DNA of 48,134 nt from Nitrospiraceae bacterium (GTDB taxonomy: Bacteria > Nitrospirota > Nitrospiria > Nitrospirales > Nitrospiraceae). The position numbers are program-made. Below are positions 21,001-24,000 of this stretch, one piece after another; position 1 is the stretch's first letter; each line of letters opens with the position of its first letter. The stretch is taken from NCBI GenBank assembly GCA_037442105.1, contig JBBIQV010000021.1:1-48134 (forward strand), in the 5' to 3' direction.

Positions 21001-24000
21001 TTTTGGCAGGAGTTTGGGATCAGGTTAAGCAAGCCGAACTCAGTGTCCTCGGTGCAGTCACGCTTGAGGAATTGGCGGGCCGCCATCAGGCGATCGAGCA
21101 AGAGAAATCCTTTGTCTACCAGATTTGATGGTCGTTCAAGCAAGATACCGGCGGCGCCCACCTACCTTTCACTAAACTAAGGAAACGATAAAGCGAGGTG
21201 CAAGATGAGTCCCCCCTCAGTGGTAAGCCGTTCTGTGATACAGACCACTCCGATTCCGGCTCATATCCGGGAAGAAATCGAAACCTTCGAGGCGGAAGCC
21301 AAGCGGGTGACGACCGGCGACCTGCCGAATGATCTGTTTAAGCCCTTTCGCCTCCAGTACGGCATTTACGGACAGCGCCAGAGCGGCGTGCAGATGGTGC
21401 GAATCAAGATTCCCTTCGGAGGCTTGACTGCCAACCAACTCCGCCGTGTGGCGGAACTCGCTGACCGGTATGCCACCGGAGTCGGTCATGTGACGACACG
21501 CCAAGATATCCAACTCCATTTTGTCGAGCTCAAAGATGTCCCGACCATTATGTGGGGACTCGCAGAGGTTGGGCTGACGACACGAGAAGCCTGTGCCAAT
21601 ACCGTGCGCAACGTGACAGCATGCCACTTGGCTGGGGTGTGCCAAGGCGAAGTGTTCGATGTCACGCCCTATGCGAAGACGGTCGCGCTCCACCTGCTTC
21701 GTAATCCGCTCAACCAGAGTTTGCCGCGCAAGTTCAAGATCGCCTTCTCCGGTTGCACGCATGATTGCGCCCTGACGCCCATTCACGATATCGGGCTCCT
21801 GGCTGTTCGCCGGGAAGACGATATGATCGGTTTCCGCATGGTTGTCGGCGGGGGGCTCGGCTCAGCGCCGCGCCTCGCGCAGGTCCTTCGCGAGTTCGTA
21901 CCGATGGAGGAGTTGATCCCCACCATCGAGGCCGTCATCAAAGTCTTCGACACACTCGGGAACCGCAAAAATCGGCACAAAGCGCGGATGAAATTTGTCA
22001 TCGAGAAACTCGGCTTCGACGAATTCAAACGCCGGTGGGAAGAGGCCTACGTGGCGCTCGGGCATGTCCGCCCGGTTCATGACCCGATCAAGCTGCTCCA
22101 TCACCAAGATGAACCGGCGCCGTTGATCATGCCGACCTTGAACGGAAACGGGAACGGCATGGTGCACGGTAACGGCTCTCACCATGGAGCCGTCCAGGAA
22201 TCTCCGTACGAGAGGTGGAGACGGACCAATGTCGTGAAGCAGAAGCAGGCGGGGTACGCGGCGGCCGTCATCAAACTATTTATGGGTGATCTGACGGCGG
22301 ATCAGATGTGGTTTGTGGCGGATCTTGCCGAACGGTATTCGAACGGCAACATCCGGACGACGATCAATCAAAACATGATCATCCGTTGGGTGCCGGAGCC
22401 TCGCCTTGCCCAACTATATGAAGAACTTGCAACTCAGGGGCTGGCCGATCCGGGAGCGGAATTAGTGGAAGACATCATTGCTTGCCCAGGCACCGATACC
22501 TGCGGACTTGGGATCACCTCTTCCAAAGGGTTGGCTCGCGCGCTCGCTGAAGTCTTTCCTCCGGGTCGCGTGCCCGAAGATTTGAAGGATGTCTCCGTCA
22601 AAATCAGCGGCTGCCACAATTCCTGCGCGCAGCACCACATCGCGACGATCGGCCTGCACGGCGTGGGGAAGCGGCAGGGAGACCATGTGGCTCCTCACTA
22701 TGAACTGCACCTAGGCGGCCAGGTGAATGGGACTGCGAAAATCGGCCAGATGACCGTCAAGCTACCGGCGAAAAACGTTCCGGCCGCCGTCTCGCACCTC
22801 ATTGCCGTCTACCGGCGCGATCGTCAGTCGGGAGAAAGCCTTCCGGCTTTCATCGCGCGGGTCGGCAAGCTGAAGCTGAAAGATGAACTCATTCCATTCA
22901 CGATCGTACCGAATTTCGATGAGGACCCCGGCTACTATTACGATTGGGAAGGCGAAGAGGAGTTCGTGTTGGAAGATCTCGGACCAGGCGAATGTGCAGG
23001 CGGAGCGCTGGAAATGATCGACAACCGCATGCTCGAAGCAGAGCAGGAACTTTACCAAGCCCGCTTGTTGGTCGAGAAACATCAATATTCCGTCTCGGTG
23101 AACAAGTCTTACCGCGCAGTCTTGGCGGCAGCGAAAGCCTTGCTTGTGACGGAAGGCCTCGATCCAGCGACCGATGCGGAGACATTCAGCGAGTTCGAAC
23201 AGCGGTTCGCTCCCCGAGGGGTGGTGCCTGCGTCCTATCGGAATTTGGGGGCGCAAATCGGGGACTTAGGTCCCAAAGACACGACTCCTGAATCGGCATC
23301 GGCGAAACTGAACTTTGCGAAGGGGTTCGTGGATGTCTGCCGAGCTGCGACCGAACAAATGGGGAAAGATCTCAAACTGGCCCAGACCGGCGCGAGCGTT
23401 CAGACGCCGGCCGAGCCCGCCGCACCGCAAGAAGCCGAACAGCCGGACACGGCACCGGTGGTCCCATCGACAGGCGCGCCTGTTTACGATTTGCGCGGAG
23501 TCGCGTGTCCGTTGAACTATGTGAAGACGAAGTTGAAACTCGAAATGATGGACGCCGGCGAGCGACTCGAGGTATGGCTCGATGCGGGAGAGCCGATCAA
23601 GAACGTGCCCATGAGCCTGCGTAACGACGGGCACAAGATTTTGGCTGAAGAGCCTTTGGAGCCGGAGGCGGCGCACTTCAGAGTGCTGGTCGAGAAAGTG
23701 GAGGGATGACCGAGGGGCGGCGGGGCCAGCCCATGCTCCCGGAGCCCGCACTTCAGAAAGTGCTCGCTCGACGGCCGCAAACGGGCTGGCCCCGCCGCCC
23801 CTCGGTCAAGGCGGAAGAGACAGGAGAAGAATAAGGGAATCGCGCTGGACGCGCGCAGTGGAGGGCAGCCCTACCACCCTCTCCAAGATGTGGAAGGAAA
23901 GAAAGGAAAGAATGGAGAGCGAAAACTGGATGTTGAGCCGGCCGGCGGATGAGGCGTTGAAGGCCTTGAGCGATTCGTTCGAGGCCAAACAGCCTTGGGA

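Follow-up and report, generated by a model that had tools for sequence, protein, structure and literature searches.

Directly behind the stop codon of a sulfite reductase gene in a Nitrospiraceae genome lies a long hairpin, and its position raises the question whether it belongs to the 3' end of the mRNA or is a DNA element that has come to rest there. The window, i.e. the whole stretch of 48,134 nucleotides analysed here, is contig C21 of a 2.81-Mb genome (labelled G000). The gene, which encodes a sulfite reductase with a C-terminal TusA domain, occupies 21205..23709 on the plus strand, and the outer stem begins with its TGA stop (23707-23709), which accounts for three pairs. The 5' arm of 26 nt (23707..23732, plus strand), whose sequence varies among copies, is followed by a conserved 46-nt core with two symmetric boxes (23734..23779, assigned to the minus strand, which folds better), and the 3' arm (23783..23808, plus strand) is the perfect complement of 23707-23732 over 26 bp. 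In this core, which has a short variable tip, the boxes flank a 2-nt bulge and 5 bp, and each contains one mismatch that never varies (G·A when read on the minus strand). The hairpin reported by the survey is therefore present where it had been placed, with these arms and this core. Its RNA fold reaches -82.2 kcal/mol with a z of -9.6, and 0 of 200 shuffles fold as well. Against Rfam, a tRNA is the sole match in the window at the gathering score, and matches to miRNA-type hairpins were sub-threshold.

The neighbourhood shows more than one event. A purine-rich stretch at 23809..23839 (plus strand) takes the approximate tail position of a unit of about 128 nt, as judged from the intact guests described below. 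Next to it lies the orphan 3' half of an older copy, consisting of a partial core and an arm (23840..23884, plus strand), which is found at the same place in the sister species. The downstream gene encodes a cysH-type PAPS/APS reductase (23912..24634, plus strand, with a predicted start codon). The window has a second copy at 26537..26702 (plus strand), 3' of the cysD stop (26515-26517), with perfect arms of 26 bp and core halves at 26564-26581 and 26654-26673. Inside its loop lies a 58-nt block of two hairpins (26584..26641, plus strand), which occurs in four copies with different arms in G000 and is missing from the orthologue of copy C1:155555 in genome G001.

Copy number, core and distribution

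On the whole, G000 has 44 short-loop copies and 7 long-loop copies in addition to orphan halves and one further copy interrupted by an assembly gap, so that the 23 copies counted before are an undercount. The pattern used for that count gives 22 exact matches and 43 at 5 mismatches; a looser scan gives 47, of which 44 were judged real short-loop copies, and the reversed-genome control yields 1 match at 6 mismatches and 0 below. Among the matches listed (80 of at least 122 loci), named records carrying the pattern belong to Nitrospiraceae or Nitrospirota. With the strict pattern, 19 of 36 other genomes of the family are positive and 0 of 24 genomes from three other families, a tally that takes in the unpublished genome G006. 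A covariance model detects the element in 13 of 14 family genomes, with one weak match among 106 others of the phylum. Three scans of viral contigs gave 0 matches.

Based on 240 distinct copies, the core consists of two symmetric boxes around five pairs and a two-base bulge. Each box has three pairs, an invariant mismatch, a position that is C-G or C·C, and one further pair, the mismatch being T·C on the gene strand and G·A on the opposite strand. The tip ranges from 4 to about 140 nt. When we aligned 40 copies ourselves, the 14 core pairs proved to be paired in 99.8% of cases, where shuffles give 88.9, and 63 changes affect both sides of a pair, where shuffles give 19.3; 0 of 500 shuffles reach either value. 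This upholds the family and its covariation as proposed by the survey. Core pairs are less linked the farther apart they lie in the stem, with r2 of 0.62 and 0.42 for neighbours and 0.00 from box to box. The two-fold symmetry of the boxes predicts a dimeric binding protein. The arms are paired over about 17-27 bp in most copies, with base bias confined to the inner four pairs. The outer stems had been described as different in every copy yet always complementary; the pairing is indeed kept, but the arms are not unique, as clusters of 16, 7 and 6 appear among 109 well-paired copies and arm lineages are common to several loci and genomes.

Placement behind stop codons and the strand that folds

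The placement is tight. In 30 of the 44 copies no more than 40 nt separate the core start from the stop codon of a co-oriented gene, whereas of all intergenic position-orientation pairs, taken as the null, 3.9% satisfy this; within 46-48 nt the number is 31, or 32 counting rpmJ, which the gene caller used here missed. Thus the position and polarity noticed earlier stand, and the neighbours fusA, typA, ybaB, purC, rpmJ, secA and the sulfite reductase were confirmed on the genes or their orthologues. All three stop codons are used (TGA 14, TAG 12, TAA 5). In co-directional gaps of G000, 31 copies lie in sense and 4 in antisense, only 1 of 44 stands between convergent genes, and the downstream genes are mostly co-oriented and close; copies are present within the fusA-tuf and ribosomal operons. 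On the inferred leading strand lie 32 of 43 copies, compared with 62% of genes, and 7 of the 11 lagging-strand copies are still behind a co-oriented gene. Replication polarity was accordingly rejected as the cause of the orientation, being weaker than gene polarity.

The site behind the sulfite reductase gene, surveyed in 72 usable loci of 74, is filled in 22 of 24 genomes of genus g18 and in 1 of 21 of genus g31, and several fully compensated arm changes separate G000 from G001 there. At three more gene ends of g18, with 30 loci each, our classifier placed the element first 19, 17 and 21 times; one of the 17 proved on inspection to be another hairpin family. The remaining slots have heptamer-repeat hairpins, other hairpins, or nothing.

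These facts would suit a structure selected by the host at the mRNA 3' end, such as a stabiliser, an RNase III or other processing site, or a TRIT-like terminator, whose core binds an RNA-binding protein; its copies would spread by recombination and be kept since a hairpin after a stop is useful. The tight placement behind any of the three stop codons, the retention of one site across nearly all of g18 with compensated arms, the copies inside core operons, and the other hairpin families in the same slots all speak for it. What argues against it is the strand. On the gene strand, the arm mismatches of all copies comprise 188 A·C and 32 G·U; taking one copy per arm family (n=134), there are 152 and 39, with 68 copies against 11. 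The excess has the same direction in four of four subsets, and it is 21:5 in G000 alone. Mutation bias was discarded as its source: 185 core-less hairpins behind stop codons give A·C:G·U of 138:143, and four-fold sites in 21 relatives, which belong to another genus and are near saturation, show no G>A excess (G>A 47/81, C>T 49/69). An excess of A·C on the gene strand is an excess of G·T or G·U on the opposite one, which shows that the selected fold is off the mRNA strand. The folding energies agree in direction, with the antisense DNA fold the more stable in 323 of 335 cores and the antisense RNA fold in 153 of 194 full copies. Moreover, the invariant internal loops are purine-purine on the opposite strand only and pyrimidine-pyrimidine on the gene strand. 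The mRNA-strand structure implied by the survey is thereby contradicted, and a G·U-tolerant fold on the transcribed strand, as expected of a cis-regulatory RNA, was not found in these mismatches, where A·C leads by about 4:1. The empty site in 20 of 21 g31 genomes after the same gene also argues against host selection of an mRNA structure, and the close, co-oriented downstream genes argue against a plain terminator. We therefore regard an mRNA element as unlikely. The antisense bias also gives a general warning, namely that covariation together with a position after the stop is no evidence for a 3' RNA element.

Alternatively, the fold could do its work in antisense RNA and halt transcription that returns into the gene, either as a terminator or as a polar barrier. 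Pairs of the G·U and G·A type are suited to RNA, the antisense RNA fold is usually the stabler one, and a pyrimidine-rich stretch lies 3' of the stem on that strand. Nevertheless the stretch contains no run of U, convergent genes almost never flank a copy, and neither the nesting nor the fixed 128-nt unit described below would be explained, which makes this reading highly improbable.

Turnover and insertion of a unit of about 128 nt

Comparison of related genomes shows that the copies come and go. For 30 of the 44 copies of G001 the orthologous site in G000 was compared: 10 have the same arms, 6 a different element and 11 none, with 3 not comparable. The empty orthologous sites hold neither arm, and the ideas that the arms are copied from the target or that a core enters existing terminators were dropped on this ground. 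Of the two origins considered by the survey, a mobile element with templated flanks is not supported by these empty sites or by the guests in loops, which carry their own arms; the maintenance of old copies by selection for pairing agrees with the compensated arm changes at one site, yet copies also turn over. On a gene-end tree, built from a 420-nt marker and weakly resolved, close pairs bear different arm lineages, showing that alleles cross species or undergo repeated replacement. The same tree has 6 and 4 changes for the tip types, which interleave on it, and arm alleles are scattered with 6 changes in 6 rows.

The length of the moving unit can be read from insertions. Locus L401 differs from L400 by a clean insertion of 128 nt at the 3' end of the host loop, and L282 and L405 have the same loop insertion at other orthologous sites. 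Overall, a host half followed by a full guest was seen in 82 cases over all loci, which are not independent as composites could spread by gene conversion. Both guest ends are seen in 32 of them, with lengths of 124-143 nt and a median of 129. The host loop ends in GAAG in 44 of 82 cases and the guest in its own GAAG in 20 of 32, while an exact repeat of 6 nt accompanies only 4 of 32 insertions. The unit thus consists of a short purine lead, a stem of 20-26 bp that is free in sequence but kept paired, the conserved core, and about 25 nt of tail with GAAG at its end. The hairpin of about 95 nt described before does exist, but what moves is longer, at about 128 nt, and includes it. Orphan 3' halves, like the one in the window, arise because the 5' half of the host is lost after nesting (L265 against L267).

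Cores and tips are swapped between copies while the arms stay with the locus. In genome G018, one identical core occurs in 10 of 42 matches, and the 8 examined fall in 6 arm families. Other small blocks are also inserted in the loop or the bulge. CRISPR-like spacers were considered for loops of 29-35 nt and rejected, as 6 such loops have no other full-length match in G000 and the loci examined. As a separate observation, another genus has a related loop, there an ordinary variant.

Could the movement proceed with no dedicated enzyme? Hairpins would break or stall replication, and repair at purine-rich microhomologies, using ectopic copies or incoming DNA, would insert, swap and delete copies, with mRNA selection alone giving position and polarity. 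Some losses with microhomology, chimeric copies, several unrelated hairpin families that nest in one another, the scattered arm alleles, and the negative enzyme searches below are in line with this. On the other side, the unit has a constant length and a fixed junction at the loop end, the invariant mismatches and bulge in 240 copies need a reader, and pairing is still 99.8% after exchange. We consider repair by itself decidedly unlikely as the full explanation. Excised circles, donor joints and clean excision joints were absent from the contigs of three runs that were compared with G000 C1:147300-166200, a region outside the window.

As to an enzyme, tyrosine recombinases, Y1 transposases, RT, IS110, DUF772/IS5, integron integrases and the Pfam families of neighbours (100 chosen of 303 called genes, and 150 of 752) were searched, and no cognate enzyme appeared. 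In 343 element loci (0.97 Mb) there are only 5 matches to the enzyme queries tried. Genome G018, 99% complete in 10 contigs and with 42 copies, has no match to Y1, RT, IS110, DUF772 or integron integrase, and no Y1 was found in G004 either. Among Y1 loci, 0 of 9 bear an element mark at one mismatch or fewer (4 genomes, incomplete assemblies). One real route to new sites, however rarely visible, is carriage by a MITE. The carrier is about 124 nt long, and of its 89 distinct cases with paired TIRs, 29 contain the element. In five loci IS5-family transposase genes are enclosed by the same TIR, flanked by CTAG. A MITE end lies upstream of only 29 of 547 distinct copies. IS110 elements insert into this carrier MITE, with an element copy in 0 of 3 such loci.

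The integron integrases deserve a closer look, as the element might be an atypical attC-like site for those of Nitrospira, with defence cassettes captured beside it. The bottom-strand hairpin, the two inverted boxes, the extrahelical bases of the 2-nt bulge and a variable terminal structure all parallel attC as presented in the accessible part of PMC3518468, and so do the position after a stop codon and the defence cargo and integrases nearby. An integron integrase is present in G000 (E 2e-141), and 8 of 30 integrase loci have element marks at one mismatch or fewer where about 7% is expected (p 0.0007; two of the 8 are orthologous), compared with none of the Y1 loci. The converse association fails, since only 1 of the 343 element loci has an integron-integrase fragment, and five element-rich genomes have no match above the family cut-off. 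Integrase genes themselves follow housekeeping gene ends and have ordinary att-like sites of their own. Unlike the attC described there, the family has no RYYYAAC/GTTRRRY pair (RYYYAAC before the core in 0 of 547 copies, GTTRRRY after it in 9 of 547), its centre is paired, a long paired stem stands outside the first box, it follows housekeeping genes, and its junctions are at the loop and not at G/TT. This makes an attC-like site very unlikely.

Relation to known repeats and a proposed mechanism

The family works like REPIN, ERIC and YPAL elements and is a member of none of them, and it has the fold logic of attC minus the att boxes. Small intergenic long hairpins in many copies with compensatory changes, higher-order arrays and proposed single-strand mobilisation are features of the REP/REPIN/BIME repeats with their RAYT (TnpA-REP), following the available portions of PMC3116915, PMC3733652 and PMC6006769; the Nitrospira family is likewise an extragenic multicopy hairpin with compensatory changes. 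By the same portions, REPINs have invariant ends and a variable spacer, whereas here the centre is conserved and the ends vary. The family is also strongly polar, and a Y1 or cognate RAYT gene flanked by copies was not seen in the nine Y1 loci of incomplete assemblies. A GTAG/CGTC end tag and invariant termini are absent, the outer arm positions having at most 0.8 bit and no motif; GT-N stands at the 3' foot of the core, not at the 5' end (GTG 145, GTA 103, GTT 67, GTC 66 of 547). ERIC/IRU (127 bp), YPAL/RU-2, Correia and RUP resemble it in a length of about 125-130 nt, a long stem-loop, and filled and empty sites, as far as the accessible text of PMC2229807 goes. This text also describes YPAL targets at or beside dyad symmetry, and YPAL co-transcribed with upstream genes. 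Compared with what it gives for those elements, the Nitrospira family has no conserved terminal repeat or TA ends, mostly no target duplication, a G+C-rich sequence and an antisense-favoured fold, and it inserts into its own loop. Nor is it a TIR-type MITE: the arms vary freely in place of conserved terminal inverted repeats, which the carrier MITE, a separate element, does have, and in place of a target-site duplication (the exact repeats being few) only GAAG is common.

The peel-and-paste movement of IS200/IS605, as set out in the available part of PMC5027513, shares a strand-specific hairpin, insertion 3' of a short motif, and a similar motif at the right end. In our family, insertion after a short motif, mostly with no duplication, is seen at loops, the gene-end relatives being too diverged to compare. 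Different from that part of PMC5027513, there is one central hairpin, no TnpA was found in our searches, no clear lagging-strand orientation set by the fork was observed, and IS200/IS605 logic predicts a fold on the other strand than the one favoured here. The TRIT motif of Mycobacterium is similar in being a structured repeat narrowly at stop codons with a proposed binding factor; in the accessible text of PMC3152330, TRITs are mostly bidirectional and called terminators, while the present family is polar, lies mostly inside operons and turns over. We found no description of the family in the literature searched, a search outside which most subscription papers lie; the supplements of PMC3733652, PMC6006769 and PMC2700814 may list related repeats. 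The string "Nitrosp" is absent from the available main text of PMC3733652, and the parts available of PMC12306157, PMC2700814 and PMC12542641 have nothing on the family. How REP- or ERIC-like repeats with no cognate transposase originate and move is an open question, and the accessible text of PMC3733652 says so for CGTC repeats. The Nitrospira family offers several handles on it. The length of its unit (about 128 nt), its junction and its folding strand are all defined, its symmetric box predicts that the binding protein is a dimer, and filled, empty and nested alleles form series at the same gene ends.

With moderate confidence we propose a family of small non-autonomous mobile DNA hairpins, whose antisense strand folds and whose two boxes are bound by a dimeric protein. 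The antisense strand would fold as single-stranded DNA and present the boxes; the protein, host-encoded or supplied occasionally by passing elements, would drive insertion of whole units after GAAG-type motifs and the exchange of tips between folded copies. Interspecies recombination, deletion and transport by the MITE would add to the turnover. Copies would land or survive just 3' of stop codons in sense orientation, perhaps since that strand has purine-rich junction motifs at these places, and also because a reversed copy would give the mRNA the stronger fold together with a pyrimidine-rich tail; targeting and survival are thus both candidate causes. Besides the negative results for an enzyme and for excised forms, the orientation by genes more than by replication and the rarity of MITE ends, further points speak against such mobile hairpins. 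GAAG may be mere purine-rich microhomology; HUH logic places the active strand on the gene side, contrary to the mismatch bias; and the filling of the same slots elsewhere by unrelated hairpin families fits selection for any hairpin as well.

A related reading, which we hold to be rather unlikely, makes the core the site of an undescribed host-encoded single-strand recombinase and the gene-end copies an integron-like network for the capture of toxin-antitoxin and restriction genes. The recombinase would act on two folded antisense strands, swap tips, and insert units and cargo at loop ends, giving a dispersed network behind core genes that has no mobile gene of its own. In the mobile-hairpin proposal that we prefer, clusters of copies would serve as portable homology, so that genes for toxin-antitoxin and restriction systems are gained and lost next to them. 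Nitrospira are cultivable nitrifiers and a major group of the nitrogen cycle, whose variable genome the copies would shape if defence genes do enter through them. Element clusters do border toxin-antitoxin, restriction and Abi genes, and in one case the related runs X2 and X3 have 1225 other nt in place of the element and an Eco29kI-type restriction-modification pair.

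The IS5-type carrier and IS110 transposase genes

The MITE, a separate IS5-type element which carries the hairpin element in some copies, is 123-125 nt long and is found in G000, the genome of the window, at C5:40572-40695, C12:1335-1459 and C32:12481-12603, and also at loci L485, L487, L489, L491 and L493. Its terminal repeats of 14 bp match IS5-family transposons in another genome, G024. One end often adjoins a stop codon: of 89 cases, 41 have TAG/CTA at one flank and one has CTAG at both. In genome G386, three IS110 transposase genes (L375, L376 and L377) lie at or within the MITE, two with both MITE ends present and the third with a single end; because of this placement, the hairpin of the MITE looks like the target of these three transposases.

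Hairpins within and in place of the element

A 58-nt two-hairpin block is located at window 26584-26641 and at C1:155575-155644, C35:30185-30253 and C45:7517-7584 of G000, where it is present solely within loops of the element. In sequencing run X1, the bin with this block reaches a summed contig depth of 302 against about 10, and its flanks are many and varied.

A small hairpin family with a G-rich terminal motif (L264, L274, L282, L288, L405) is inserted at the bulge or loop of the element, and also within the MITE. An additional gene-end family (L427, L429, L430, L435, L443, L465) occupies slots used by the element, and its loop receives the element 3' of a TAG-containing motif. Long hairpins with heptamer-repeat arms stand behind many stop codons (among others G000 C2:9398, C9:37236 and C22:45131; L294, L392, L406, L416) and, at orthologous sites, alternate with the element.

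Neighbouring genes and recombinases

In the window, a sulfite reductase with a fused TusA domain is encoded at 21205-23709, and the Rfam search gives no match besides a minus-strand tRNA at 19090-19161. Behind a copy of the element on G000 C1 lies an Eco29kI-type endonuclease and methyltransferase pair (L300:12172-14317); two related runs have different DNA in place of this pair.

Two reverse-transcriptase frames of 481 residues, with equal scores and 4.2 kb apart, are found on G001 C45 (L372, L374), with no mark of the element nearby. Integron integrases (L200:1165-2442 on G000 C39, L201-L213, L227) are extended at the N-terminus by about 90-110 residues without a Pfam match. Their genes often lie 3' of a housekeeping or thermonuclease gene, and about 150-250 nt past them come an att-like GTTAG and a co-oriented gene. 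On G026 C48 (L187, L190, L183), a tyrosine-recombinase fragment of 107 residues occurs as three repeats spaced by about 1.8 kb.
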